A stretch of 14,731 nucleotides of DNA, taken from positions 1-14,731 of the forward strand of contig CAZHRF010000059.1 of the NCBI GenBank assembly GCA_964534625.1, read 5' to 3'. A model generated the notes under the pieces. The model was given only the letters and a program-made list of their open reading frames with translations. It searched no databases and was not told where the DNA came from. This document shows, in pieces, positions 1-14,731 of this stretch (position 1 is its first letter; every line of letters begins with the position of its first letter). The DNA is from an uncultured archaeon. GTDB lineage: Archaea; Asgardarchaeota; Heimdallarchaeia; Heimdallarchaeales; Heimdallarchaeaceae. Position numbers and translations under genes: made by a program.

Positions 1-12
1 CAGTAATTATAC

Positions 13-20
13 TTATATTA
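13..20 (+). promoter_or_regulatory. Putative TATA box for the dcyD-like gene
   Basis: TTATATTA about 27-34 nt upstream of the GTG at 47, consistent with a leaderless archaeal transcript. AT-rich context lowers specificity. Confidence 0.35.
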
Positions 21-46
21 AGGGATAATAATATACTGATTAAGGA

Positions 47-1078
47 GTGATACATCTGGAAATAGATCAATTACCTAAGTTAACCATTGGTATCTGGCCT
101 ACACCAATAACCAAATTAGAAAATCTTTCAGAAAAGTATAACACGAATTTATATATTAAGAGAGATGATTTAACAGGTGTACTATTGGGAGGAAACAAAG
201 TTAGAAAACTAGAATATTTTTTTGCTGATGCCCTATCGCAGAATAAACAAACAATTATAACTACTGGTTCAGCTCATTCTAACCACAACAGTCTAACTGT
301 GGCTATTGCTAATATGCTTGGATTATCAACCTATTTAGTCGTTGCATTGGATGAAAATGAAACTATCTCCGAGAATAAAGACATTAACGGCAATTTACTT
401 TTACAGAACCTTTCAGAAGCTAACTTTGTATTCACTAAAAAAGACGAAACTAGTAAAACAATACATACACTCTTAAAAAAATTAGAAGAAGAAGGCAAAA
501 AGCCTTATTTTATACCTGTCGGAGGGCACGCTCCTTTGGGTTTATGTGGATACATTACTGCTATGAAAGAGATACAAGCACAAAGTCAAACTTTAGGTAT
601 TAACTTTGATTATATGGCAGTTTGTGTAGGAACAGGAACAACTGCAGTAGGGTTATATTTGGGCAAAATCATCTATAACTATCCTACTGATTTAATTGGT
701 ATCAACGTCTTAAAAGACAATGAGTGCATTCTTGTTGATAGTCAACAGATAATAGCTGAATTCAATGAAAAATATAACACCAAGTATGATTTTAAAGAAG
801 CTTCCATTAGATTTGTGGATGATTACTTGACTGGAGGATATGGTAAACATGACAAATCGATTTTTGATACAATTGAACTTTTAGTGAAGGAAGAAGGAAT
901 ATTAATGGATCCCATCTATACAGCCAAATCTTTCATGGGCTTATTAAAAATGATTGAAACCGATAAAGGTATGCAAAATAAGAGTATTCTTTATATTCAT
1001 ACTGGAGGGCTTCCTATACTATTTGAAAAAGGTTCACGGGATTTCTTAGTTGATAACCTTGCAGATTTAAGACTTTAA
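47..1078 (+). CDS. dcyD: D-cysteine desulfhydrase / ACC deaminase family PLP-dependent enzyme (D-Cys desulfhydrase-type residues)
   Basis: PTPI..L, LYIKRDDLTG..LGGNKVRKLEY (PLP lysine), SNH, IPVGG, VGTGTTAVGL, DPIYTAK and IHTGG motifs. GTG start is uncertain. Confidence 0.85.
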   Translation: MIHLEIDQLPKLTIGIWPTPITKLENLSEKYNTNLYIKRDDLTGVLLGGNKVRKLEYFFADALSQNKQTIITTGSAHSNHNSLTVAIANMLGLSTYLVVALDENETISENKDINGNLLLQNLSEANFVFTKKDETSKTIHTLLKKLEEEGKKPYFIPVGGHAPLGLCGYITAMKEIQAQSQTLGINFDYMAVCVGTGTTAVGLYLGKIIYNYPTDLIGINVLKDNECILVDSQQIIAEFNEKYNTKYDFKEASIRFVDDYLTGGYGKHDKSIFDTIELLVKEEGILMDPIYTAKSFMGLLKMIETDKGMQNKSILYIHTGGLPILFEKGSRDFLVDNLADLRL

Positions 1079-1178
1079 AAAGTTACTACAGAAGATAATT
1101 ACAGAAATCCTCCATCTTACATTTTCTTTAAAATTAGTGTTACTTCCTATTTTTATTAATCCCTTTTTTACTAGCTTT

Positions 1179-3296
1179 TTAACTTTTACTTGGACATTTA
1201 GGATTTAGACATAATATCCAAGGTTGTGAATGTTTTTTATTAAATACTTTAATTACTGGCCATCCATCATGCTTACAGGTGACTTGAGTTGTCACAATTT
1301 TACCTCTTTGTGGTAAGGGAAATGTTGTTCCACACGCATTTTTTGTGCCATATGTTGAACAACTCGCAAATCTTTTCTTTGTTCTTGGATTAATAACTAC
1401 TTGGATTTCACCTTTTCCACATAAACACTTACCTAAAATTTGTTTATCTTCTGCTTTTTTATCAGCTGTTTTCTTACTTGTTTTTGAACTCACTCTATTT
1501 ATTGGGAATTCATCCAATATAGGAGTTAACAATTGTTCTACCTCTTTTCTATGTTCTTTAGTTGTTCGTTTTCCCTTTTTGATTTCCTCCAAATGATCTT
1601 CTAGTTCCCTTGTAAACTCTGGAACTACTACTTGAGGACATTTGTCTTTCATCATTTGTAATACTTTTACTCCTAATTCGGTAATCGCTATTTTATAGCC
1701 TGTCAAATATTTTTTGCCAAATAATTGTTCAATTATATCAGCTCTTGTTGCTTTAGTTCCCAAATCCAATTTTTCCATCTGTTTCAAAAGAGCGATTTTT
1801 GTGTAGCGTTTGGGAGGTTTAGTTTCTTTTTCCAATAACTGTATTCTAGCTAAGTATGCATCTTGCCCTTCTTTCAGGGGAGGGAGAGTTTTTTTTATTC
1901 TAGGAGGATAAGGATAAACATCAAACCATCCTGCATTAATCACTTTTTCTCCTTCTGAAACATATGGATGACCTCCGAAAAGGAATTCTACTAAAACATG
2001 TTTGATAAGTGCTGCAGGACAAAATGTTGCCAAATATCTCCATACAATCACACTATAAACTTTGAATTCATCTATGGGTAATTTTCCTGGAAAGTTTCCT
2101 GTGGGGTAGATAGCTGGATGCGCTTCATCGGTTTTCTTTCCTTCCTTCGGTTTTAACCATTTGTTAGCTAGAATTTTTTTAGCTGCTTTTGTAAAAGTAT
2201 TTTGTTTTTCAATAGAAGACAGAATATCTACGTGTTTTAACCCCGGGGGATACTTTTCACTATCTGTTCTAGGATAAGAAATTAAGGCTTTCAAATAGAG
2301 TTTTTCTGCTACTGCTAAGGTTTTTTTAGGGGTAAATTTGAATATTTTACTTGCTTCTTTTTGAAGTGCGCCGAGATTAAAAGGTGCGGGAGGAGGAACT
2401 TTTCTTTTTCTCTCTTTTATCGTGTTAACTTTACCCTCTCTATTATTCTTCGATTCTGCATAGACTTTTTCTGCTTGTTCCTTCTTGTCAAATTTTTCTG
2501 GAACAGAGTGTGCAGGAATAGTTTTCTCATATTCCTCCACTTTTACTCTAGCTTTAATTTGCCAGTAAGGGATTGGATTATGATTAGTTATCTCCTCTTC
2601 CCTTTCATTAACTAAATTTAATACTGGTCCTTGTACTCTCCCAAAAGACAAAGCTCCTTTAGGTCGTTCTGTTTTAGGTATAGCTAAGGTTAATGCTCTA
2701 GAAAAGTTAATTCCAACTAGCCAATCAGTCAAAGATCGTGATATGCCTGATTCAAAATAGTTAAACAGCGGGGTAGGTTTCCTATTATTATATGATTTTC
2801 TTAACTCACTTTTTTGAAGGGTTGAATAGATCATCCTTGCAGTATTTTGTTTATATTTTGTTATTCCTGCCAATTTTTGAATCAATAACCCCCCAATAAC
2901 TTCACCTTCTTGATCATAATCTGTCATAATGACATACCTGTCTGCATTTTTGACCAATTTATTTAAGCCTGCAAAATAATCTCTATAAACACTCTTAGGA
3001 ATACCTCCTCTAGAAAACTTAATTTTATCTTTACGTTCCCAATCACAGCTGTAATCAGGATACGTCCATCCGCCTTTCTGAGATTCTAATCCATATAGAT
3101 GCCCTAGTGCTGGTCCAATAACTATAGGTAATTCGTTTTTTCTTGGACAAACATAATAAGTCATTTTACCATATTTTTTTGATTGGGTTTGCCCATCACT
3201 TAACGCATAGGCTAATTGTTTGGCTGCAGAAGGTTTTTCTGCTATGCCAAAAACATATTTAGGTGGGGTATAAATGGTTTTTTTTCTTCTGGGCAT
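1179..3296 (-). CDS. topA: DNA topoisomerase type IA (archaeal TopA/Topo III-like) with C-terminal zinc ribbons
   Basis: TOPRIM motifs AEKPSAA, GHL and TDYDQEGEVIG; GRVQ; catalytic ISYPRTDS; AHPAIYPT; LGTKATRADII; C-terminal Cys clusters (CLC..C..C, C...CLNPKC). The ORF is open to 3317, but ATG 3296 (MPRRKK) fits a TTTTTAAG box at 3327-3334 better. Confidence 0.93.
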   Translation of the reverse strand: MPRRKKTIYTPPKYVFGIAEKPSAAKQLAYALSDGQTQSKKYGKMTYYVCPRKNELPIVIGPALGHLYGLESQKGGWTYPDYSCDWERKDKIKFSRGGIPKSVYRDYFAGLNKLVKNADRYVIMTDYDQEGEVIGGLLIQKLAGITKYKQNTARMIYSTLQKSELRKSYNNRKPTPLFNYFESGISRSLTDWLVGINFSRALTLAIPKTERPKGALSFGRVQGPVLNLVNEREEEITNHNPIPYWQIKARVKVEEYEKTIPAHSVPEKFDKKEQAEKVYAESKNNREGKVNTIKERKRKVPPPAPFNLGALQKEASKIFKFTPKKTLAVAEKLYLKALISYPRTDSEKYPPGLKHVDILSSIEKQNTFTKAAKKILANKWLKPKEGKKTDEAHPAIYPTGNFPGKLPIDEFKVYSVIVWRYLATFCPAALIKHVLVEFLFGGHPYVSEGEKVINAGWFDVYPYPPRIKKTLPPLKEGQDAYLARIQLLEKETKPPKRYTKIALLKQMEKLDLGTKATRADIIEQLFGKKYLTGYKIAITELGVKVLQMMKDKCPQVVVPEFTRELEDHLEEIKKGKRTTKEHRKEVEQLLTPILDEFPINRVSSKTSKKTADKKAEDKQILGKCLCGKGEIQVVINPRTKKRFASCSTYGTKNACGTTFPLPQRGKIVTTQVTCKHDGWPVIKVFNKKHSQPWILCLNPKCPSKS

Positions 3297-3618
3297 AATC
3301 TCAGTAAATAATAACATAGATTTTACCTTAAAAAGCCGTCGTTTTATGGTGTAACAAAAAACACAAAAAAATAATTACAAGTAAAATGGTTTTTTCTTTT
3401 GAGATTATGAGGTCTTCTTACACCTTTATATATCCTTCATTTTTGATTAGAAAGGTGAATCAACAAGAGGATGTGGGAGAAAAAATCATAGTACAAAAAA
3501 AGAAAAAGACCATAAACCTTAGAGTTAATCTTCCCTAATAAAAAATGGTCAACTAAGTATGATTAGCAGAATGATAAAATGTATACTGAGATGAACTTTG
3601 AAGTTCATAAAAAAATGC

Positions 3619-3654
3619 AAAGAAAGAAAAAGAAAAAGAAAAAGAAAAGAAAAA
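3619..3654 (-). terminator. 36-nt pure pyrimidine (TTTTTC-repeat) tract right after the pilin stop codon; probable archaeal oligo-U terminator
   Basis: The + strand has only A/G from 3619 to 3654 with GAAAAA repeats. It starts a few nt after the stop at 3659. Confidence 0.6.
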
Positions 3655-3658
3655 TACT

Positions 3659-4804
3659 TTATACCCCTTCCCAAACAAAAATATTATCAAATAGTGCTCC
3701 TTGTATCGCCCCTGACATTAATCCAATGTATCCTGATTCTAGTTTGTCATCGATAGTTTGTAACATTAAGTTCCCATCTATATATATCTCTATAGTTGAT
3801 CCACTGGCAACAACAGTATAGTCGTACCATGCGTTATCATCTCTTGTCCATTGGGTCGTATGCAATGTTATCAAGGTACCTCTGTCTTCTTGACTTACAG
3901 GATCATCTGGATGACCTGGATATCCATGTCCTTCTACATAGAATAAAGTAAGTTTTCCTGATTCCATAGTCCCATCATAATGTGGTCCATTTCTACCATC
4001 CGTTAGGGTGTGATCATTAGAATAGGTGATCATATAAAATCTAGGTATACCTTCTTCATCTGTGTTAAATCTAAATATTATACCCATTATATCGTCATCA
4101 CCATTAGCATTCAAAGAAAAGGAAATGTTCACATCTCTAAAATTGTGTTCTTCTGCATCTAAAATGGCATATTGACAATTGTTCGGTCCATATTGAAGGA
4201 CTTTATTCCCATCGTCATCTACTATCTGCCAATCAGCTATACTTATAGTTCCAATAGGATCATGGTTAGCCACATGATAATATGTCCATTTTGTATCATC
4301 AAGGTTGTCACCTATTGAATAACTTTCAAAATCTTCACTATATCTTACAATAATAGGTGAATATTCTGCAGGGATGGTTATATCAGATGTTAAAACCAAA
4401 TCTGTATAATAAATTTTTATTCTTATTTCATCGCCATATTTTATTAAATCACGTTCTATGTTCAAAGGTTCAATGCTTACCACTTTAGAGATACCTATAC
4501 CAACCTCAACAGGTGCATTTGGGCATAACCATTCCGTCAATTCTGTGTTCTTTAGTACTTCAACTTTTTCTATACTAGTCTTAGCGCTACCTATGTTTCT
4601 AACGCTTAAATCCATTTTGTCTACATATTTATTACCCTCTCTGTCATAGAAAGTGGTTTTTTCATGTAGTAATTGAGGATTCCCTGTTAACAGTGGAATA
4701 ACTGCAAAGTATACTACTGCTGAAGCTGCTACAACTAGAGCAATAAGTAATATTGTGGCTATAACTGGAGAAACAGCTTTTTTCTTAATCTTTAACATTT
4801 TCAT
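3659..4804 (-). CDS. Archaeal type IV pilin-like protein (class III signal peptide) with Ig-like domain and C-terminal ConA/L-type-lectin (TSP_C-like) domain
   Basis: N-terminus KKKA|VSPVIATILLIALVVAASAVVY is a PibD/FlaK-type cleavage site plus hydrophobic helix. aa ~45-145 are beta-rich (VRNIGS). aa ~153-381 contain YSEDFE, GDDDIMGIIFRF, WYDYTV...IEIYIDG and SGYIGL...FDNIFV. Confidence 0.8.
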   Translation of the reverse strand: MKMLKIKKKAVSPVIATILLIALVVAASAVVYFAVIPLLTGNPQLLHEKTTFYDREGNKYVDKMDLSVRNIGSAKTSIEKVEVLKNTELTEWLCPNAPVEVGIGISKVVSIEPLNIERDLIKYGDEIRIKIYYTDLVLTSDITIPAEYSPIIVRYSEDFESYSIGDNLDDTKWTYYHVANHDPIGTISIADWQIVDDDGNKVLQYGPNNCQYAILDAEEHNFRDVNISFSLNANGDDDIMGIIFRFNTDEEGIPRFYMITYSNDHTLTDGRNGPHYDGTMESGKLTLFYVEGHGYPGHPDDPVSQEDRGTLITLHTTQWTRDDNAWYDYTVVASGSTIEIYIDGNLMLQTIDDKLESGYIGLMSGAIQGALFDNIFVWEGV

Positions 4805-4820
4805 GGTATATTACGATGTA

Positions 4821-4836
4821 TTATAAAATTATAAAA
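4821..4836 (-). promoter_or_regulatory. Tandem TTTTATAA TATA boxes upstream of the pilin gene
   Basis: + strand ttataaaa occurs twice (4821-4828 and 4829-4836). The distal copy is 25-32 nt upstream of ATG 4804. Confidence 0.5.
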
Positions 4837-5030
4837 GTATTGCCAATAACTTAAATTATTATCTAAATAGTAATATGTTATAGTTATGTCTTTTGACTAA
4901 ATACTGAATGTACCTTTATATTACATTGAGCTTGAGTTTTTAGAACCTAGAACCTTGATTTGAACTTGGATATTAGGTGCCAATGAACTTAAACTAATAA
5001 TGTTTGATCATTCAAATAATAGAATCTTTG

Positions 5031-5045
5031 AGAAAAAAGAAAAAA
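5031..5045 (-). terminator. Oligo-T tract after phoU, likely the end of the pst operon
   Basis: The minus strand reads TTTTTTCTTTTTTCT about 14 nt after the phoU stop. Confidence 0.5.
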
Positions 5046-5058
5046 TCTTGACTGCAAA

Positions 5059-5730
5059 CTATTTGATAATTACATTTTCTCCTGTTTTTGAGTAATACCA
5101 TCTTTCAGCTATGTTACAGATATGATCACCTACACGCTCAAGATGTCGCGCAATTTGGGCTACAGCCACAATCTGTTTTATTGTCATTCCCTCTAGACAA
5201 TTTTTATCATCAAATGTTTGAAATATTTCATCATATATTTTATCAATTATTGTATCAGCGTCTATCAGTTGTTGAGGATCTGGTGTCGAATCTGTTTCAA
5301 AAGCCATTTCCAAGGTATCCATCATAAAATCTATACTATTGTATATTTTTTTTATTGGGACACGATACTCTTCTGTTGTTGGAAAAAGCATATGAAGATT
5401 CTCGATAGAGTGATAAGTATCTCTTGAAACACGTTCATAGTTTCTAATTATTTTTAGAATAGACAGAATAAAACGGAGATCACCAGCGAGCGGAGATTGT
5501 AACAAAAGTAATTCTATACAATTCCCTTCTATTTGATTGGTAAGTTGCCTTACGCTCCAGTCAATTTCTTGCGCTTTTTCAATCTTGATTTTTTCTTTCT
5601 TTCCTTCCTTTAGTTCTACAAACGCTTCGATTATTTCAATATTCTTTTTTACTAAATTGTTTAAATGTAATAGGTCTTGTTTAAGGCCTTTAAGCTTATC
5701 AGCATATTTTTTGCGTGTTGTTTTTATCAT
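5059..5730 (-). CDS. phoU: Phosphate signalling/transport accessory protein PhoU
   Basis: LQSPLAGDLRFI...YERVSRD, DTIIDKIY and ARHLERVGDHICNIAE motifs; lies directly downstream of pstB. The start is set at ATG 5730 because the upstream GTG (5739) is part of an AGGTGA SD. Confidence 0.92.
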   Translation of the reverse strand: MIKTTRKKYADKLKGLKQDLLHLNNLVKKNIEIIEAFVELKEGKKEKIKIEKAQEIDWSVRQLTNQIEGNCIELLLLQSPLAGDLRFILSILKIIRNYERVSRDTYHSIENLHMLFPTTEEYRVPIKKIYNSIDFMMDTLEMAFETDSTPDPQQLIDADTIIDKIYDEIFQTFDDKNCLEGMTIKQIVAVAQIARHLERVGDHICNIAERWYYSKTGENVIIK

Positions 5731-5744
5731 TATTTTCACCTGTA

Positions 5745-6560
5745 TTAACCAAATCTACCTGTAATATACTGTTCGGTTAAGTCTTTATCTGGTTTTTCAA
5801 AAATTTTCTCTGTATAATTATATTCTATCAATTCACCAAGATACATGAAAGCGGTTTTGTAGCTTATACGAGCAGCTTGATGCATACTATGTGTGGCAAT
5901 AACTACTGTATAATCTTTTGCTAAATCAATAAGCAAGTCCTCTATTACAGCTGCTGAAATAGGATCTAAACTCGCACACGGTTCATCAAACAGCAATATT
6001 TTGGGGAAGACTGCAAGGGTTCTCGCAATACAGAGTCTTTGTTGTTGTCCTCCCGATAGCGCAATAGCTGAATCTTCCAGACGGTCATGTATCTCATCCC
6101 ATAATCCAGCTCGCTTAAGACTAAATTCGACTATTTGATCTAACCTATCTTTATTTTTAATTCCCCGTATACGTGGTCCATAGGCTATATTATTATAGAT
6201 AGACTGAGGAAAAGGTGTAGGACGCTGAAATACCATTCCCACTTTTGTTCTCAGTTGAAAAAGATCAATTTTATTTGATAAAACATTTTTACCATCTATG
6301 ATGACCTCTCCCTTATAATTTACTATTGGCGACCTTTCATCGTTCATTCTATTAAATGTTCGTAGAAAAGTAGATTTTCCACAGCCAGAAGGACCAATCA
6401 ACGCCGTGATTTTATTCTTCTCAATATTGAGAGAGACACCTTTAACAGCGTGAAAATCTCCATAAAAAACATCCAAATCTTGTACAGAGAAGGCTATATC
6501 TTTAGGTAGGTTATTCTTTGTTACTGTTTTTTGTTTTTGAGTAGATTTTAAATTAAACAT
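5745..6560 (-). CDS. pstB: Phosphate ABC transporter ATP-binding protein PstB
   Basis: Walker [49 protein letters not shown]...QAARIS and YITGRFG. ATG 6560 follows an AAGGTGA SD; the ORF track's GTG is at 6569. Confidence 0.97.
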
Positions 6561-6584
6561 TTTTTTCACCTTATTTTTTATTGT

Positions 6585-9044
6585 TTATTCATATTTTACT
6601 TTAAATTTAGCTCGAAATATTTGCCCTATAATAAAGAGTACCATCGTCATAACAAGTAAGATCATTGCACCAGTCATCGCCCAACTTTTGGATGGATGAT
6701 TAAACCCAGGATCTTCTATAGCCAAATACCAAATTGTAAAAGGTAGCATAGCAATACCTTCTCCTCTTAATCGTGATGGATAGGCACGTGAGCTTATTTT
6801 TAGTACTGCTACAGTGAGCATAATAGGGGCTGTTTCACCTATTACCCTACTGATAGACATCAAATAACCCGTAATAATTGATGGAATAGCATAGCGTAAA
6901 TTTTGCCCTTTAATAGCTTCCCACTTCGTTGCTCCTAAAGATAGAGCGTTAAGTCTATAATGTTCTGGAACTTGTTCCAAGGCTTGAATACTAGTAGATG
7001 TAGCAATTGGGATCATCATGATAGCCAGAGTACACGCTCCTGAAAGGAAACCATGTCCCCATTTAAATATTAAGACAAACATTCCCCAGCCAAATAATCC
7101 AACTACTACACTTGGTACAGAAGCTATGTTTTGAATAGAATCTTTTACGAATTGTCCGAATTTATTTGTGGGTTTTACATAAAAGAATAAGTAAATACCA
7201 GCAAATGTACAAATGGGTAGTGCAATAAGAGCAGCAGCGCCAACAACAATAATAGACCCGAGAATTGAAGGTAACCAACCATAATTATTACCACTCCTTC
7301 TGATGGAAAAAAGATCACGTAAAGCAAAATCTTTGAATCCTTCAATAAATAAAACGATAGTTATTGCTGTTATAATCGCCAATACCCCCAGCGTAATCAA
7401 ACGGAAAAGAGTAAAAGTTATAGCTTGACGCACATGTTTGTGTTTCGATGATGTAGAGGCATTGGAAAGAAAATATTCTTGGATAAACTGTTTTTCTTCT
7501 TCAGTATTATATAGCTCGTTGTTTTTTAAACTATTATCTGTTTCATGTTGTTTTGGATGCTTCTCTTTTGAGTTCTGATTTGAACGCATGTTTTTAGTAT
7601 TATTAATGTTGGTTTTCGTAGTGATCGATTCCGCATCTAATGGCTCATTCATCCGCCTTTTTTCAATTATATTATTATGTGCATGAGGAGTGGAATAGAA
7701 CACACCTATTCCAAATATAAAAAGAAAGAACATTGAGAAGGCAGGATTAATCTCACTTAGGCTTCCATATATAATTTGTTCAATAAAAATAAGAATAATA
7801 GGAACTGTTGATAAATAAATTGATAATTTGTTTCGATTATCTGCTATTTTATGACTGAAAAAGAATAGTCCAATTGATACAAAAATTAAGATATCCAATA
7901 TAAGGATCCCTATTAAAGCTGCATGGGCAGACAGATACGTTATTGTTTCAATTATATCCCAAATTGTTGCTAATAATAGAAAGAACCACAAAATTACCGT
8001 TACTTTACCATATTTTTGATTAAACAAGTCTTTAATGCTAATCTCTTCACTTTTGATAATCTTTCTATATGATGGGAGGAAAATTTTCTTTTTAGCGATA
8101 GATCTTCCTATTCCTGTGACTAGAAATGATAAAAGTAGAAGTTCTAATGCTATAACATATAATGCAAAATACTCTGCAGTAAATAAAGCCACATTTTTGT
8201 ATTCAACAGCTATTTTAGCAGGAATAGGCGCACCTCCTTGTAGGGGGTTAAAGACACTTTTACGTAGATACCACGTTTTTGCACTAACCATAGCAACAAC
8301 CATTGTTTCTCCTATAACACGAGCGAAGGCAAGTATACAGGATGAAACAATACCTTTGATAGCATAAGGAATACTGACTTTCCAAATAACCTCTAACTTA
8401 GAGGCTCCTAGGGCTGTACCTGAATGCTTGATATCAGTTGGAACAGAATCTAGAGCTTCATCTGTAAGAGTGGCAATAAAAGGGATTGTCATAAAAGCTA
8501 ACGCGATTGACGAAGTTATCAGCACTTTCCCCGAATTTAATCCAAAAAAGTTTCGTACAAATTCTGTCAAATAAAATATGGCTAATAAACCTACAACAAC
8601 ACTTGGAATAGCATTAATTAGTTCAATTGCTGGTTTGATGATATTTTTGATATGCTTGGGGCAAATTTCTGCAAGGAATATACCAACAGATATACCAATA
8701 GGTATTACCAAAATCATCGCATAACTAGTTACAATCAGACTACTGATAAGAAGATTTTTACTCCCAAAATATCCTTCTTCGTATTCTGCTTCAGGTATCC
8801 ACTTTTCCGTAGTTATGATTTCTTTGAACAATTTAAAATCAATAAGAAATCTGCCTGTATTCGTAATAATAAATACTGTTATAAATATGACAAATAAACT
8901 CGCGAAAATAGCACAAAAAGCACTAAAATATTTAATGAATAGATCTTTTTTTTGTCTTGTCGATCGAAATCCGATGGTTTCTTGCTCAAAAAATTCTGAA
9001 CTCATAGGAGAAGTAGAATCTATATCATCATAAGATTGAGACAT
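6585..9044 (-). CDS. pstC: Fused phosphate ABC permease PstC-PstA with an extra central 4-TM segment and polar linker
   Basis: Two complete permease modules: IPSVVVGL / ALGAS / ARVIGETMVV (PstC, aa ~35-320) and VPSVVVGLFG / LSLGAT / SRVIGETAPI (PstA, aa ~540-822), in one uninterrupted frame. ATG 9044 follows an AGGTG SD; the ORF track's GTG is at 9053. Confidence 0.9.
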   Translation of the reverse strand: MSQSYDDIDSTSPMSSEFFEQETIGFRSTRQKKDLFIKYFSAFCAIFASLFVIFITVFIITNTGRFLIDFKLFKEIITTEKWIPEAEYEEGYFGSKNLLISSLIVTSYAMILVIPIGISVGIFLAEICPKHIKNIIKPAIELINAIPSVVVGLLAIFYLTEFVRNFFGLNSGKVLITSSIALAFMTIPFIATLTDEALDSVPTDIKHSGTALGASKLEVIWKVSIPYAIKGIVSSCILAFARVIGETMVVAMVSAKTWYLRKSVFNPLQGGAPIPAKIAVEYKNVALFTAEYFALYVIALELLLLSFLVTGIGRSIAKKKIFLPSYRKIIKSEEISIKDLFNQKYGKVTVILWFFLLLATIWDIIETITYLSAHAALIGILILDILIFVSIGLFFFSHKIADNRNKLSIYLSTVPIILIFIEQIIYGSLSEINPAFSMFFLFIFGIGVFYSTPHAHNNIIEKRRMNEPLDAESITTKTNINNTKNMRSNQNSKEKHPKQHETDNSLKNNELYNTEEEKQFIQEYFLSNASTSSKHKHVRQAITFTLFRLITLGVLAIITAITIVLFIEGFKDFALRDLFSIRRSGNNYGWLPSILGSIIVVGAAALIALPICTFAGIYLFFYVKPTNKFGQFVKDSIQNIASVPSVVVGLFGWGMFVLIFKWGHGFLSGACTLAIMMIPIATSTSIQALEQVPEHYRLNALSLGATKWEAIKGQNLRYAIPSIITGYLMSISRVIGETAPIMLTVAVLKISSRAYPSRLRGEGIAMLPFTIWYLAIEDPGFNHPSKSWAMTGAMILLVMTMVLFIIGQIFRAKFKVKYE

Positions 9045-9080
9045 AATTGACACCTAGTATAGTAGTTTATGAGTAATTAC

Positions 9081-9101
9081 AAAGAAAAAAACAAGAGAAA
9101 A
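9081..9101 (-). terminator. Oligo-T tract between pstS and pstCA (possible partial terminator)
   Basis: The minus strand reads TTTTCTCTTGTTTTTTTCTTT directly after the pstS stop. Confidence 0.45.
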
Positions 9102-9106
9102 GGTTT

Positions 9107-10096
9107 TTACCTTTTACTCCTAACAATTTTGCTTGAGATACCCGCTGTAGCAATCACAGCTACAATTATAGCTATCATATTCATTGGAGAGGGAGACACA
9201 TCACCCACTGTCCATCTTAAGGGATCTTCTGGAGAATAATCAGTATAATAATTAATTCCTACAGGTATATAGCCCACATAATAAACAATGCTTTGACCTT
9301 CAATACCTAAAAGGAAATCAATAAACCGACCAGCTAATCCATTAGGAACACCATCTGTAACCAAATAGAGATCTCTTGCTACGGGATAAGTTCCATCGAT
9401 AATAGTACTTACTGAAGGAGAAACTCCATTAACAGCTACATCTTTCATTGTATCATCTAAATAGGCTAATCCTATATAACCAATGGCATTTTCTTCCGTT
9501 CTTATAATATTAACAGTTTCAGGGTGTGAGGCAGTCTGAGCATGATCAGCTACTTCACCTTGAGGTACATCTCCACCATCAAGGAAAAACTCATTAAAGA
9601 AATCATGAGTACCACTATTTGCATCTCTTTCTACAACTTTTATATCTTGATCATCTCCTCCTACATCTTGCCAATTTGTATAAGTACCATTATAGATCCC
9701 AGTAATCTGCTCTATAGTTAATTCACTAACAGGATTATCAAGATGTACAACAATTACTATTCCATCAACACCTACAACGGTGATGTAAACATCAACACCA
9801 GCATCATCGGCTTGATCAAGTTCTGAACTTTTGGGTAATCGGCTCATTGCACCTATATCAGTATCACCACTAATTAGCATGGCAATACCTGTTCCACTAC
9901 CTGCTGCACCAAGATCAAAACTGATGTGAGGATAGTATTCATTATATCTTCTAGATCCTTCTTCAATAACTGGATAGACAGTACTGCTTCCATGTATTCG
10001 CAAGGTTTCTTCTGTATTTGCACTTACAGCTGTACTGAAATACGCTATTGCGAAGGTCAATATTATTATCGTTGTTACGAATGACTTTTTGTTCAT
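9107..10096 (-). CDS. pstS: Phosphate ABC transporter substrate-binding protein PstS, with signal peptide and C-terminal TM anchor
   Basis: GSSTVYP, GSGTGI, DIGAMSR, DGIVIVVH, IYNG..TNWQDVGG, RDANSGT, AIGYIG and YPVARDLY motifs. The signal peptide starts at MNKK (10096); the ORF is open to 10114. Confidence 0.95.
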   Translation of the reverse strand: MNKKSFVTTIIILTFAIAYFSTAVSANTEETLRIHGSSTVYPVIEEGSRRYNEYYPHISFDLGAAGSGTGIAMLISGDTDIGAMSRLPKSSELDQADDAGVDVYITVVGVDGIVIVVHLDNPVSELTIEQITGIYNGTYTNWQDVGGDDQDIKVVERDANSGTHDFFNEFFLDGGDVPQGEVADHAQTASHPETVNIIRTEENAIGYIGLAYLDDTMKDVAVNGVSPSVSTIIDGTYPVARDLYLVTDGVPNGLAGRFIDFLLGIEGQSIVYYVGYIPVGINYYTDYSPEDPLRWTVGDVSPSPMNMIAIIVAVIATAGISSKIVRSKR

Positions 10097-10180
10097 CTGT
10101 AATCGAGTCAACATTTATTTTCCATTTTAATATAAAATAATTCCACATATCCTCTATTAGGTTATTGTGCGCAATTAGCT

Positions 10181-10210
10181 ACTATATAGCACTATTTTTA
10201 CTATATAGTT
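10181..10210. promoter_or_regulatory. Tandem palindromic operator (ACTATATAGC-N9-ACTATATAGTT) upstream of pstS
   Basis: CTATATAG palindromes inside the copies at 10181-10190 and 10200-10210, with a 19-bp period. The same architecture occurs at 11477-11506. Confidence 0.75.
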
Positions 10211-10384
10211 ATGGTTATCTTTAATTTGTGAAATAGATAAAATCAGCACCAGCATTATCAAGAGGGAGTATGTCAGACTTCAAAAAATATAATGAAGTCC
10301 TAACAATTACCAAATAGTTGCAAACCATATATAGTAACTACTTAGAAGTTTCTTTTAATCTCAATCAATTTTAAAAAACGTAAA

Positions 10385-11407
10385 TTAATCTCTATCACTG
10401 TTTATTACAGCCTCAGCTATATCTGCAGCATAACTATTTATTCTCTCAAAACTCCTGATAAGTAATATTATCGATAGCAAATGTTCATGTTCAATCTTAG
10501 TAATCTTGTGATAAAGAGCTTGAATGTCTTTTTGTAAAACGGGTTTATTATTAGCTATATCATTAGCCTCTAGAACTTTGGTGTTAAAAAAACAACCCAT
10601 TGCATTATTATAACTATCTCTAACTTTAGAACCAATGCTTTTAATCTCATTTAAAAGAGTCTTATTTTCAATCAAAGTATCCATTTCCATAACAGCTTGG
10701 GCTATACCATAAGCGTGATCCCCAATAGCTTCAAGTCGTTTGATAACTAATTTATAATCCATCACTTGAACCATTTTTATACCCAAGTATGAACAGTATG
10801 AAAGGTCAGATAAAATAGCATTAAGCTGCCGAGATACAAGAAAATATAAGCGGTCAACAGAAGGTTCTTGAAGTGAAACAAGACGAGCTGATTCTTTGTT
10901 AAGAGTAAAAAAGGATTCTAAAGCATTTTTAAACATCTTATCAGCAAGAACGTGTGTTCGATGAATCAGTTGATTGAGATCTAAAGATTCTAAACTAGTC
11001 AGATCTTTCAGTTGAATCCAGTGATTGGACTCTTCAACAATTTCAACTCCCATAAGATTAGCGGTAAATTGTTCAATTTTAGTACGAAACTCAAAATCTA
11101 TCCCGTCCTTATCAAATAGTTTTATCAAACGATAGCCTGAAAGATATTTACTAACAATTTTCCTTAATACTAGGTTGATGTCAAGAATTTCATTAATATT
11201 TATTTCTACTTCCTTAGTACTAGCTTCTCTTTTTTTATCTTCTGACATCACAAGAAGATTGCCCTCTTGTTGAGGATAAATGACTACTGTATCACCTTTT
11301 TCTAAATCACTCATGCGAATCCAATCGATGGGAAGGGCTATAGTATATGTGCTTCCACCAGTCTTTTGGATTTTTCGTGAATAAAATTCTTCGTCTAACA
11401 TATTCAT
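10385..11407 (-). CDS. Archaeal phosphate uptake regulator (N-terminal AbrB/SpoVT DNA-binding domain + two PhoU domains)
   Basis: RKIQKTGGSTYTIALPIDW..LEKGD.V (AbrB-like), SKYLSGY, LMGVEIVEES, VDRLYFL, KRLEAIGDHA and FERINSYAADIAE. The true start is probably 11407 or 11401; the extension to 11545 looks non-coding and overlaps the operator. Confidence 0.9.
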   Translation of the reverse strand: MNMLDEEFYSRKIQKTGGSTYTIALPIDWIRMSDLEKGDTVVIYPQQEGNLLVMSEDKKREASTKEVEININEILDINLVLRKIVSKYLSGYRLIKLFDKDGIDFEFRTKIEQFTANLMGVEIVEESNHWIQLKDLTSLESLDLNQLIHRTHVLADKMFKNALESFFTLNKESARLVSLQEPSVDRLYFLVSRQLNAILSDLSYCSYLGIKMVQVMDYKLVIKRLEAIGDHAYGIAQAVMEMDTLIENKTLLNEIKSIGSKVRDSYNNAMGCFFNTKVLEANDIANNKPVLQKDIQALYHKITKIEHEHLLSIILLIRSFERINSYAADIAEAVINSDRD

Positions 11408-11476
11408 AATGCGTTTAAAATACATCAATATATAGTTTATTGAATTGCACAATATTATTAGCAAAAAATAAATACA

Positions 11477-11507
11477 ACTATATAGCAACAATAGAACTAT
11501 ATAGTTC
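11477..11507. promoter_or_regulatory. Tandem palindromic operator (ACTATATAGC-N9-ACTATATAGTT) upstream of the AbrB-PhoU regulator
   Basis: Copies at 11477-11486 and 11496-11506. The second copy lies within the perfect 14-bp palindrome GAACTATATAGTTC (11494-11507). Confidence 0.75.
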
Positions 11508-11776
11508 ACTATTGTTTTCAGTAAAGAGTTGATAATGAATTTCATAAAGGGAAAAAAAACAATACATATTTGTTACGTATTCTCTGATTTCCCTTGTATT
11601 TCCTTTGTTTTTTTCACTGTTTAACCATCCTTTCTTGTTCTGTTCTACATAAACCAGACGGAGTGTGATAAGATGGAGTAGACTGTCATTCCTCTGTTAC
11701 TAACTGTTTATTTGTTTTTTTGTTCCTCTCCAGTACAGAATCATTCAAAGACTTTTAATATAAAAAGAGGAAAATT

Positions 11777-12835
11777 ATGGACGAGAAAAAAAAAATGACT
11801 GAAAAGATATGTTCTGTTCTCACAAAAAATCAAACCATTCTTGCTCAAAAAATAATGGATAAACACTATGAAAAAAACCTTGACATGAAAATTAACTATT
11901 CTAATAAAGAGAAAAAAGCTGCACTAGAAGATACAGAGTTTCATCTAAAATATTTAATAGAAGCACTTAGATTTGAAGAATCAAAATTATTTAGATACTA
12001 CATTTCTTGGGTGAAAGAGTTATTTATAGGCTTAAATTTGAATATAGAAGGACTGAAAGAGAACTTACAGATCATGCAATCAGTGATCAGAGAGACTTTC
12101 CCTAAATATTATGAAACGATTAATGAATATTTGAACGAAGGCATAAGAGAAACAGAGCAAAAAATTGTTTTAACTCAAACATATATAACAGAAAATCAAC
12201 CATACGCCGAGCTTACACAAGAGTATGTTAATGCCTTATTAGAGAGAGATAAACAAAAGGCACTTAAACTTATTCTGGGTGAAATAGACAAAGGTACGGC
12301 TATAAAAGACTTGTATTTACATGTTTTTCAGCTATCCCAATGGGAAATTGGCCGTTTATGGCAAAACAACGAGATATCTGTAGCTCAAGAACACTATTGT
12401 ACATCAGCGACCCAACTAATTATGGGGCAATTATATCAACATTTAATATCTTCAGAAAGAAAAAATAAAATACTTATTGCTACTTGTGTTGGCAAAGAAT
12501 TACATGAACTGGGTATACGTATGGTATCCAACCTATTTGAGCTAGATGGATGGGATACTTATTACTTAGGTGCCAATATGCCTTCAGGGGAGATTATAAC
12601 TATAATAAAGGACATACAACCAGATCTTATTGCATTATCAACAACTATTGTATATCATCTTTCTGAAATGAAAAATTTGGTTTCAACTATAAAACAAGAT
12701 TATACAACAACAAAAGTTGTGGTTGGCGGATACCCTTTTAATTTAATAAAAAATCTATGGAAAAAGATAGGAGCTGATGGATATGCGCCAGATGCTGAAA
12801 AAGCAGTTAAATTAGGGAATGAATTAGTAGGATAA
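11777..12835 (+). CDS. Cobalamin-binding sensor protein: N-terminal globin/phycobiliprotein-like helical domain + B12 cap + Rossmann B12-binding domain (photocobilin/CarH-like)
   Basis: W195-x9-E205H206 (WQNNEISVAQEH), E241-x-H243-xx-G246, YLGANMP, DLIALSTT, VVVGGYP and GADGYAPDA. GAGG SD at 11767-11770. Confidence 0.85.
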   Translation: MDEKKKMTEKICSVLTKNQTILAQKIMDKHYEKNLDMKINYSNKEKKAALEDTEFHLKYLIEALRFEESKLFRYYISWVKELFIGLNLNIEGLKENLQIMQSVIRETFPKYYETINEYLNEGIRETEQKIVLTQTYITENQPYAELTQEYVNALLERDKQKALKLILGEIDKGTAIKDLYLHVFQLSQWEIGRLWQNNEISVAQEHYCTSATQLIMGQLYQHLISSERKNKILIATCVGKELHELGIRMVSNLFELDGWDTYYLGANMPSGEIITIIKDIQPDLIALSTTIVYHLSEMKNLVSTIKQDYTTTKVVVGGYPFNLIKNLWKKIGADGYAPDAEKAVKLGNELVG

Positions 12836-12841
12836 ATATTT

Positions 12842-14341
12842 ATGGTTATAAAAACAGGCATTATTGTTTTAACTACAATAAATGGCAAAATCATTGAAAT
12901 AGTTAATACTGGAACTATTTCAGAATTAAACAATTATTCAAGTTTAGATACGATACCACACGATAATAAAAAATTTAGAGAATTACTAACTGAGATAGAA
13001 AAAAAAGGATATTCTTTCTCAAAAGAAGTGAAATTAAAGCTAAATGGAGTTCATACATACTATTTTGCAGGATCTAAAAGCGCGAATAAAATAGTACTTT
13101 TTGGTTGTAAGTCGAAATTGAACTTACTAAGGATGTTTGACAGATTGAGTAGTTTAAAGCCATTTTCTAAGTATTTAGAACCTTTATCACCAATCATTCA
13201 AAAAGAATTTGAAAAAATTGATGACCAATATGCCTTTTTAGACGAGCAAAGTTCTATAGTTAATGAACTTATCAACACGCAAAGGGAGTTATCATTAAAA
13301 AATATTAAAATAGAAAAAGAACGATTAAGATATGAAGTTACACTAAAAAATATTGAAGAAGCAGTTATATCAACCGATAGAAATTTCTGTATCCGTTTTA
13401 TTAATCAAAGAGCTGAGTTATTAATGGGGATTTCGCAAAGTAATGTTTTAAATAAGCAAGTGCAAAAAGTCCTACAACTTTATGATGAAAATTCAACAGA
13501 AGTTGGGTTTGATTGGTTTATAGAAAGAAAAAGGATTATATTTCAAGATTATATTGCATTGATTCATAAAGATGGAATCCGCATACCAATCGTAGGCGCG
13601 ATTTCAATATTAAAACATCAAAATACGGTTTTTGGCTATTTAATTGCTCTTTCCGATATAAGCGAAAGGAAGGAGATGATTGAAGAAAAAGAGAGAATTA
13701 ATCAATTATTAGAGATATTAAACCAAATTTTAAGACATGACATTAATAACAAAATTATCATCCTCAATTATGTTTTATCTGAATTAGAGGATAAGGAATC
13801 AATTTTATATCAACAAGGAGCCAAAGCATTAAAATCCATAGAAAAAATAATTGAAAGAGTCAAAAATATTGAAGAAGCAGTAAAAGAACAAGTTAAATTA
13901 GAAGTGTATCCATTGACAAAGATTATACAAGAGATTATGGGATCATATGATATCAGTTACCAAATAGAAGGGAAAGGAAAAGTCTGGGGTGATGGTGCTA
14001 TTTACTCTGTTGTACAAAACATTGTAAATAATGCTGTTTTACATGGAAAAGCAGAAAGTATCAAATTCATTATCGAGCAAGAAGAAGAGCACGTGATCTT
14101 GAATATAATAGATGATGGTAAAGGGATTAAACCAAATATAAAGAAACAAATATTCGAAAAAGGATTTAAATACGGAGAAACAGGAAATACGGGATTAGGA
14201 TTATACATTGTACAACAAATTATGCTCCGTTATAAAGGAAGTGTGTCTGTAGAACCAATTAAGCCAAAAGGTACAAATTTTAAATTGTATTTCTATAATG
14301 CTGAAGGTATTTCAAAAAAAGAATTAAACAAAAGAATATGA
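12842..14341 (+). CDS. Soluble PAS-domain sensor histidine kinase
   Basis: PAS (TLKNIEEAVISTD...FINQRAELLMG...DISERK), H-box ILRHDINN, N-box NIVNNAVLHG, G1 DDGKGI, F-box IFEKGF and G2 GNTGLGLYIV. No TM segments are evident. It starts 6 nt after the B12 gene. Confidence 0.92.
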   Translation: MVIKTGIIVLTTINGKIIEIVNTGTISELNNYSSLDTIPHDNKKFRELLTEIEKKGYSFSKEVKLKLNGVHTYYFAGSKSANKIVLFGCKSKLNLLRMFDRLSSLKPFSKYLEPLSPIIQKEFEKIDDQYAFLDEQSSIVNELINTQRELSLKNIKIEKERLRYEVTLKNIEEAVISTDRNFCIRFINQRAELLMGISQSNVLNKQVQKVLQLYDENSTEVGFDWFIERKRIIFQDYIALIHKDGIRIPIVGAISILKHQNTVFGYLIALSDISERKEMIEEKERINQLLEILNQILRHDINNKIIILNYVLSELEDKESILYQQGAKALKSIEKIIERVKNIEEAVKEQVKLEVYPLTKIIQEIMGSYDISYQIEGKGKVWGDGAIYSVVQNIVNNAVLHGKAESIKFIIEQEEEHVILNIIDDGKGIKPNIKKQIFEKGFKYGETGNTGLGLYIVQQIMLRYKGSVSVEPIKPKGTNFKLYFYNAEGISKKELNKRI

Positions 14342-14731
14342 AAACTAATAAAATTAAAGAACCAATATCGCTGTCAGACAGATCTAAAATATTCTTATAA
14401 TCATCGAAAATTATCTTATTGTTCAATTAATACCTCACCATTCGTGTGATATTGATTTATTTACCTGTTTTTTCTTCTTTCCGTAGTATCTGTTAATGGG
14501 TGTATTCAATAAAGATCATATATCAAGTATTACATTTTTGTCCCCCCCTACTAATGTTTAGGAAACTCAAAAACAGCACATGGAATAAACAAAAGTAGAA
14601 TAATACCATTTGCCATGAAATAAACGATTAAAAAGTATCCCCCCTCTCTTCTTGGAAGAAGTCATCTTTTTATATATTCTATTGTTCTTGTAAGGAGACA
14701 GATACAAGAAGGTCACCTTAACATATAGTCC

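Follow-up and report, generated by a model that had tools for sequence, protein, structure and literature searches.

A candidate phosphate-control operator shared by the promoters of pstS and an AbrB-PhoU regulator gene in a heimdallarchaeal genome

A well-established DNA site of phosphate control, the Pho box of the E. coli type, consists of 7-bp direct repeats with an 11-bp period that replace the -35 element; it belongs to the PhoB/PhoR system, with its response regulator of the OmpR family. A second group of relevant systems is formed by the swapped-hairpin regulators (AbrB, SpoVT, antitoxins of the MazE/VapB type and MraZ), which are dimeric, bind short symmetric or phased repeats and are mostly repressors that often regulate their own genes. 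Among archaea, Akinyemi et al. 2021 are said to have found that the phosphate response of the Methanococcus maripaludis pst promoter depends on a conserved AT-rich stretch that precedes the B recognition element (BRE) and the TATA box; to our knowledge, neither a factor nor a defined box has been reported for this promoter. Furtwangler et al. 2010 reportedly described "Pho boxes" in the pst1 and pst2 promoters of Halobacterium salinarum. Here we analyze a DNA stretch of 14,731 nucleotides (hereafter the window) from an uncultured archaeon of the Heimdallarchaeaceae (assembly GCA_964534625.1, contig CAZHRF010000059.1, positions 1 to 14,731), in which pstS and the gene of a putative AbrB-PhoU fusion regulator are each preceded by two copies of the 8-bp palindrome CTATATAG. 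The box also marks phosphate genes of many other archaea, and by this evidence it is very probably the switch on the DNA through which archaea control these genes.

The two elements have the form ACTATATAGC-N9-ACTATATAGTT and are located at positions 10181-10210 and 11477-11506, both read on the + strand. Their arms are identical at 21 of 21 positions, whereas their spacers agree at only three of nine; assuming neutral drift, the probability that all six mismatches would land in the nine spacer columns out of 30 is 1.4e-4. The core pattern is CTATATAG-N11-CTATATAG, with the two palindromes 19 bp apart from start to start, and it matches the window twice when up to three mismatches are allowed (0.20 matches expected). 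Relative to the two genes, which are both on the minus strand, the first element lies 85-114 nt before the pstS ATG at 10096 and the second 70-99 nt before the AbrB-PhoU ATG at 11407. The distal and proximal boxes of the pstS promoter are found at 10200..10210 (core CTATATAG at 10201-10208, within a 10-bp palindrome at 10200-10209) and 10181..10190 (core 10182-10189), and those of the AbrB-PhoU promoter at 11497..11506 (core 11497-11504) and 11477..11486 (core 11478-11485), all four being assigned to the minus strand. The initial annotation of this DNA had described such a tandem palindrome pair on the same strand at both places, about 70-115 nt from the genes, and our measurements agree with it on layout and distance. 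It had also proposed scanning the genome for the pair. Across the whole assembly (3.37 Mb, 32.3% GC, 89.8% complete), exact CTATATAG-N11-CTATATAG was found twice, upstream of pstS and of AbrB-PhoU only. The single 8-mer occurs 72 times genome-wide, which gives 0.0015 expected pairs for a given spacing and a probability of 1.2e-6 for at least two. The only further exact pair of CTATATAG with a spacing of 8-32 bp (C42:11713, spacing 15) was dropped as a regulatory site because it is coding, inside an open reading frame (ORF) of 1075 aa. No second motif shared by the two elements (ATTG..CAAT, or GCTAAT after the proximal box) rose above chance.

We then scanned 31 genomes of the same family (~95 Mb) for the 17-mer CTATATA-N3-TATATAG, which represents two boxes 9 bp apart. 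Only five of these genomes contain pstS, and they are also the ones with AbrB-PhoU (55-58% identity). The 17-mer is located 75-120 nt upstream of pstS in all four carriers other than the window's genome, and these four pstS promoters account for all but one of the five exact matches in the family. The fifth match (G001:C36:52955; positions 1501-1517 of locus L038) is intergenic; its neighbors are a divergently oriented ABC ATPase gene and a gene of 397 aa that lacks annotation. No phosphate link was seen beside it, and neither pstS nor AbrB-PhoU was detectable in that genome with the queries used. Two near-matches in the family fall inside genes. The AbrB-PhoU promoters of the four other carriers present one or two upstream boxes together with a box-like TATA element. 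The regulator and the pst genes are co-directional in the window and convergent in the four relatives (G002, G007, G014 and G017), and the boxes are retained in relatives with the other gene order. The initial annotation had stated that the idea would fail if the motif were missing from ortholog promoters; the boxes are present there in all four. The nearest named relatives of the window's genome are Candidatus Heimdallarchaeota metagenome-assembled genomes (MAGs), including Ca. Heimdallarchaeum endolithica PR6.

The comparison was extended to more distant archaea. A single-protein search of named genomes returned no relatives, whereas an alignment query returned 80 AbrB-PhoU loci from Heimdall, Borrarchaeum, Methanomassiliicoccales, other Thermoplasmata, Methanosarcinales, other Halobacteriota, Nitrososphaerota, Bathyarchaeia, Archaeoglobi and others. 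At many of them, pst genes are adjacent. With the window included (81 loci), the density of exact boxes is 1.76/kb within 250 nt before AbrB-PhoU or pstS, relative to 0.033/kb in other intergenic DNA (a ratio of 54) and 0.014/kb in coding DNA, in counts that are dominated by Methanosarcina loci and are not independent. An unbiased ranking of 8-mers in the same loci placed variants of the box at the top. When up to one mismatch is allowed, the box was found in 5/5 loci of the Heimdall family, 2/2 of Borrarchaeum, 3/3 of Methanomassiliicoccus and 29/30 of Methanosarcinales, and in a minority of the loci of Nitrososphaerota, Bathyarchaeia, Archaeoglobi and other Heimdall lineages. Spacers between divergent pstS and AbrB-PhoU genes carry the box in Borrarchaeum (in the same 17-mer frame), in Methanomassiliicoccus (13 bp apart) and in an Archaeoglobaceae MAG (29 bp). 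Across phyla, no gene has the box in front of it as consistently as AbrB-PhoU does, as expected of an autoregulated factor. In other families of the Heimdall group, whose regulators are 30-34% identical and have a different N-terminal motif, direct GGAGAAAT-like repeats with a period of ~10 bp are located upstream of AbrB-PhoU in place of the CTATATAG box (L068 ~5790-5960; L069 ~2550-2720). These repeats could represent a diverged operator or simply ribosome-binding-like words.

The exact 27-mer of the window was also scanned in one genome per GTDB species, without reference to gene content. It was found in at least 80 places, with 66 bacterial and 14 archaeal places listed. Of the 14 archaeal matches listed, 9 immediately precede phosphate genes; of the 66 bacterial ones listed, none does (Fisher 8.6e-9). 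Four of the nine, from three Methanolobus genomes and a further member of the Methanosarcinales, are located 68-103 nt ahead of a pit-PhoU_div operon, and in Halorubrum the exact pair with its 19-bp spacing is found 76-102 nt ahead of the pstS ATG. Three precede AbrB-PhoU (two Nitrososphaeria and Ignisphaera), and one precedes pstB of a Thermoproteota contig. Besides these nine, one archaeal match is close to ppk1 in Bathyarchaeia and another is close to a pit gene. In the Methanolobus/Methanosarcinales loci (L210 3996-4022, L151, L163 and L184), the exact 19-bp-spaced pair is located between a gene of the Nre family and the pit-PhoU_div operon. The 19-bp arrangement thus recurs in other archaea, where the box marks a wider phosphate regulon. 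The initial annotation had called for a test of enrichment upstream of phosphate genes, and enrichment is what both the 81-locus comparison and the archaeal matches listed display. Taken together, these results make us highly confident that the two elements of the window are a genuine and conserved control site of phosphate genes.

A candidate for reading this site is encoded next to it. The AbrB-PhoU gene (10385..11407, minus strand) encodes 340 aa comprising an AbrB/MazE-type domain, a middle alpha/beta domain and a PhoU six-helix bundle. The first of these matches PF04014 (AbrB/MazE) with 27.6 bits against a cut-off of 24.7, and its motif is conserved in orthologs. In the monomer model, the N-terminal 60 residues have a predicted local distance difference test score (pLDDT) below 55, in keeping with a domain whose folding requires an interleaved dimer. 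Pfam PhoU matches the protein in two stretches, i.e., two PhoU repeats, and the modelled C-terminal six-helix bundle is confident, with a Foldseek target TM-score (template-modelling score) of 0.82-0.83 relative to 4q25, the Pseudomonas PhoU. Residues E226, D230, D329 and E332 are invariant in an alignment of eight sequences and form E/D-xxx-D acidic motifs in both PhoU repeats; the significance of these motifs in PhoU proteins is well established. The score of AbrB-PhoU against TIGR02135, the equivalog of stand-alone PhoU, is 50.5 bits for a cut-off of 130, whereas the stand-alone phoU of the window (5059-5739) reaches 126.8, just under that cut-off. AbrB-PhoU is a member of a distinct fused family, apart from stand-alone PhoU. 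Between the AbrB and PhoU parts, residues 64-135 (window 11005-11218) are confidently modelled as a beta-alpha-beta-alpha-beta-beta domain without a Pfam match, which may be a dimerisation or ligand-binding module. In Thermococcus, an AbrB-PhoU protein annotated as a SpoVT/AbrB regulator with a PhoU domain was found on chromatin (PMC7325993).

The best-supported reading is that AbrB-PhoU is the protein that reads the site, and we consider this probable. In the window, the two 30-bp elements would then be operator arrays of the adjacent AbrB-PhoU, controlling pst and the regulator's own gene, a reading that we favor on the comparative evidence. The initial annotation had proposed the same operator with autoregulation and pst control: the part that concerns a shared operator of phosphate genes is borne out by the comparisons, and the regulator is the most likely reader. 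Several observations weigh against this reading. The link between the box and the protein is one of association, and pstS and AbrB-PhoU always co-occur in the Heimdall family, such that the regulator is inseparable from the transporter by presence and absence. In about half of the AbrB-PhoU loci from more distant relatives, no box is present within 250 nt, and phoA and pit of this genome have none. The spacing of boxes is variable (9, 13, 19 and 29 bp), a pattern not usually seen with a rigid oligomer. Being rich in AT and similar to a TATA box, the box could be read by the TATA-binding protein (TBP) or by another factor. Finally, the signature of the DNA-binding domain does not track the presence of the box cleanly. 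An N-terminal "TG-x-ST" signature was considered as co-varying with the box, and it is contradicted by the loci of Nitrososphaeria and Ignisphaera with perfect boxes.

Part of this evidence would also suit a real phosphate operator with another reader, a transcription factor whose gene lies elsewhere: the association is shared by such a factor, many AbrB-PhoU loci lack a nearby box, the DNA-binding signature does not co-vary with it cleanly, and boxes precede pit and ppk1 genes that do not adjoin AbrB-PhoU. We nevertheless judge this explanation unlikely, as no other regulator gene recurs in the examined loci and, in several phyla, the box stands upstream of no gene as regularly as of AbrB-PhoU.

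The spacing of the boxes offers some indication of how AbrB-PhoU might occupy them. Across loci, distinct box pairs are 9 bp apart in six cases, 19 bp apart in the window and 29 bp apart in three cases, and spacings of 13 and about 31 bp were also seen. A locus of Bathyarchaeia (L182 5190-5216) contains three perfect boxes at 0, 10 and 19, in a spacer ~490 nt upstream of ppk1. Each spacer of the window holds a degenerate middle box with five of eight matches, namely a CTAT half-box in the pstS element (10192..10199) and an ATAG half-box in the AbrB-PhoU element (11489..11496), with no strand assigned to either. The middle 8-mer of 19-bp pairs matches the box at 5.3 of 8 positions on average in phosphate-linked cases and at 3.5 of 8 in bacterial chance matches (p 3e-5), a difference to which base composition may contribute. 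We read the elements of the window as putative three-box arrays (10+9, ~9.5-bp phasing) with a decayed middle box, which would explain why the differing spacers each hold half a box.

The position of the arrays relative to the core promoters bears on a further alternative. Counted from unambiguous start codons, the TATA-like words of this genome are most frequent at -32 to -29, with TTTATATA as the usual TATA box, and a second class of genes presents a Shine-Dalgarno peak at -16 to -9. It follows that many mRNAs probably lack a leader. A scan for sigma-70 promoters and intrinsic terminators showed no excess and is irrelevant to an archaeon. The putative TATA box of pstS is TTTTATAT at 10130..10137 (minus strand), 34-41 nt before the ATG. 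The AbrB-PhoU gene has no Shine-Dalgarno word and carries a box-like TATA element, CTATATAT, at 11428..11435 (minus strand), at -28 from its ATG and with seven of eight matches to the box; this is the probable core promoter of a leaderless mRNA. The center of the proximal box is 50 bp upstream of the TATA center for AbrB-PhoU and ~52 bp upstream for pstS, which suggests that the two promoters share one architecture.

The boxes could alternatively be core-promoter elements themselves, i.e., special TATA boxes for TBP and TFB that define phosphate-responsive or alternative upstream promoters with long leaders. Such a role might be expected of a box that contains TATATA and occupies the TATA position in some archaea, in a family where the TATA box of AbrB-PhoU is box-like in four of the five orthologs and where the pstS promoters of some relatives have no other clear TATA box. 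It is improbable in view of the geometry, however. With TTTATATA as the usual TATA box, a box-like 8-mer occupies the TATA position in only 1.3% of the genes genome-wide; the pairs are located 70-114 nt upstream, with separate TATA-like elements at the expected place; and TATA boxes have neither the C and G at the flanks nor an apparently phased layout in tandem. In Methanosarcina, moreover, a canonical TATA box is found 9-10 nt upstream of the box.

The Methanosarcina promoters are also informative about the sign of regulation. There, the box falls between the TATA box and the start site, and a second variant of the box is found 87 nt further upstream. A site between the TATA box and the start site is the classical position of an archaeal repressor. 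In the Nitrososphaeria, Ignisphaera and the Thermoproteota contig, the box covers the TATA position. The initial annotation had seen a hint of activation in the location of the pair upstream of the likely TATA boxes. The location itself holds, at about 50 bp, but given the arrangements in these other archaea and the box-like nature of the regulator's own TATA box in this family, the hint finds no clear support. We lean slightly toward repression under phosphate excess rather than activation from the upstream position, for three reasons: most members of the fold family are repressors, PhoU of bacteria has a negative role, and several lineages have the box on top of the TATA box or downstream of it.

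Two further explanations fare worse. The palindromes might form an RNA hairpin in the 5' leader, as an attenuator or a processing site, and each element does fold as an 11-bp stem of modest stability (-10.8 and -11.1 kcal/mol, z ~ -2.2). This is very improbable, given that sequence rather than pairing is conserved across phyla without compensatory changes, that single boxes and direct 9-bp repeats exist, that no Rfam match was found and that no promoter is obvious upstream of the AbrB-PhoU element. A chance match, or a functionless remnant of a local duplication or insertion as the direct repeats flanking the 1.3-kb regulator gene might suggest, is effectively refuted by the perfect arms between unrelated spacers and flanks, by the boxes kept in relatives with a different gene order and by the enrichment across phyla.

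In the window's genome, the regulon appears limited to this one cassette, since phoA and pit lack the box. The phoA gene, the pit gene with PhoU_div and a TrkA_C-PhoU gene present no tandem box and at most one imperfect box far upstream. Relaxing the search to pairs with up to two mismatches in total and a spacing of 8-32 bp yielded 35 pairs genome-wide, relative to 22-82 for control palindromes; being no more common than the controls, relaxed pairs give no wider regulon. The expectation of the initial annotation that the motif would define a genome-wide phosphate regulon therefore finds no support here. The phoA gene (G000:C8:56997-59115) has a divergent ArsR-family helix-turn-helix gene beside it and may be under separate control. 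The TrkA_C-PhoU fusion (G000:C84:4143-5300; 385 aa) is the third protein with a PhoU domain in this genome.

The candidate controlled operon spans 5059..10096 on the minus strand and comprises pstS (9107-10096), a fused pstC-pstA (6585-9053), pstB (5745-6569) and the stand-alone phoU (5059-5739). A T6 run at 10373..10378 (minus strand), 7 nt after the stop codon of AbrB-PhoU, is a likely archaeal terminator, and pstS should therefore have its own promoter. Between this stop codon and the pstS boxes, an isolated box-like 8-mer, CTATATAT, is found at 10327..10334 (minus strand). The longest frame of the regulator comprises 386 aa from 11545 and runs across the boxes. Because the Pfam AbrB domain begins at residue 60 of this frame and the start of the orthologs corresponds to the ATG at 11407 in the eight-sequence alignment, we took the 340-aa protein as the real product. 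The over-extended ORF (10385-11545) spans the regulator's own operator, and automatic annotation may bury the boxes in a coding region. Within one genus, one closed genome carries the cassette (pstSCAB-phoU with AbrB-PhoU) and another does not, which indicates that it is accessory. The cassette looks like an accessory, possibly transferred, module that brings its own operators.

From these observations we infer the binding protein, the geometry of the oligomer, the signal and the sign of regulation as follows. AbrB-PhoU would be a one-component phosphate regulator, whose N-terminal AbrB-type domains would pair into a two-fold-symmetric DNA-binding module that reads CTATATAG. Several dimers could align on boxes phased every 9-10 bp, which in the window would be two strong outer boxes and a decayed middle one. 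The C-terminal PhoU bundle with its conserved acidic motifs would report the phosphate status and shift the occupancy of the boxes. Since the same array is located ~50 bp upstream of the likely TATA box at both promoters, pstSCAB-phoU and the AbrB-PhoU gene would be switched together. Repression under phosphate excess would act through cooperative contact with the box-like TATA element. A broader and doubtful possibility is that CTATATAG is an ancestral phosphate operator of all archaea, Asgard included, on which AbrB-PhoU, as a one-component phosphate sensor, polymerises along boxes phased at 9-10 bp and, given the mimicry of a TATA box by CTATATAG, competes with TBP, in a system unrelated to PhoB/PhoR.

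A phosphate-starvation response is documented in Methanosarcina mazei (PMC6864096), and a phosphate-regulated pst promoter serves as a tool in Methanococcus (PMC11373211). No paper defining the regulator that switches archaeal phosphate-uptake genes, or its site, was found in the literature searched. Nor did this search, which covered neither Akinyemi 2021 nor Furtwangler 2010, return a published AbrB-PhoU operator or a description of the CTATATAG box. The sole archaeal paper found with the word, on Sso7c4 (PMC5222340), contains it in a generic 10-bp oligonucleotide, which we regard as a coincidence. Our results supply a precise and mutable DNA word together with a named candidate protein. In the genetically tractable Methanosarcinales and haloarchaea, this word is likewise a mark of genes for pst, pit, ppk and the regulator, so that one knockout and one gel shift in these lineages would test the model for archaea generally, including Asgard. 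A compact phosphate-responsive promoter part for archaeal genetics would follow.

The resemblance to the bacterial Pho box is one of logic: a short, repeated and apparently helically phased word precedes pstS and other phosphate genes, and the regulator gene is probably under the same control. The two differ in form, as the word here consists of 8-bp palindromes 19 bp apart that are located upstream of the TATA box in an archaeal TATA/TFB context. They also differ in the candidate reader, which is an AbrB-PhoU fusion rather than an OmpR-family protein; the OmpR/PhoB-type output domain (Trans_reg_C, PF00486) was not found in this 89.8%-complete genome, whereas it was found in 10 of 10 bacterial controls. 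With the swapped-hairpin regulators, AbrB-PhoU shares its DNA-binding fold family according to Pfam, but here two further parts are joined to it, an alpha/beta domain and a complete PhoU sensor bundle. The promoter of M. maripaludis is likewise an archaeal pst promoter under phosphate control. The H. salinarum pst1 and pst2 promoters are haloarchaeal pst promoters under phosphate control, and it is in another haloarchaeon, Halorubrum, that pstS carries the exact pair.

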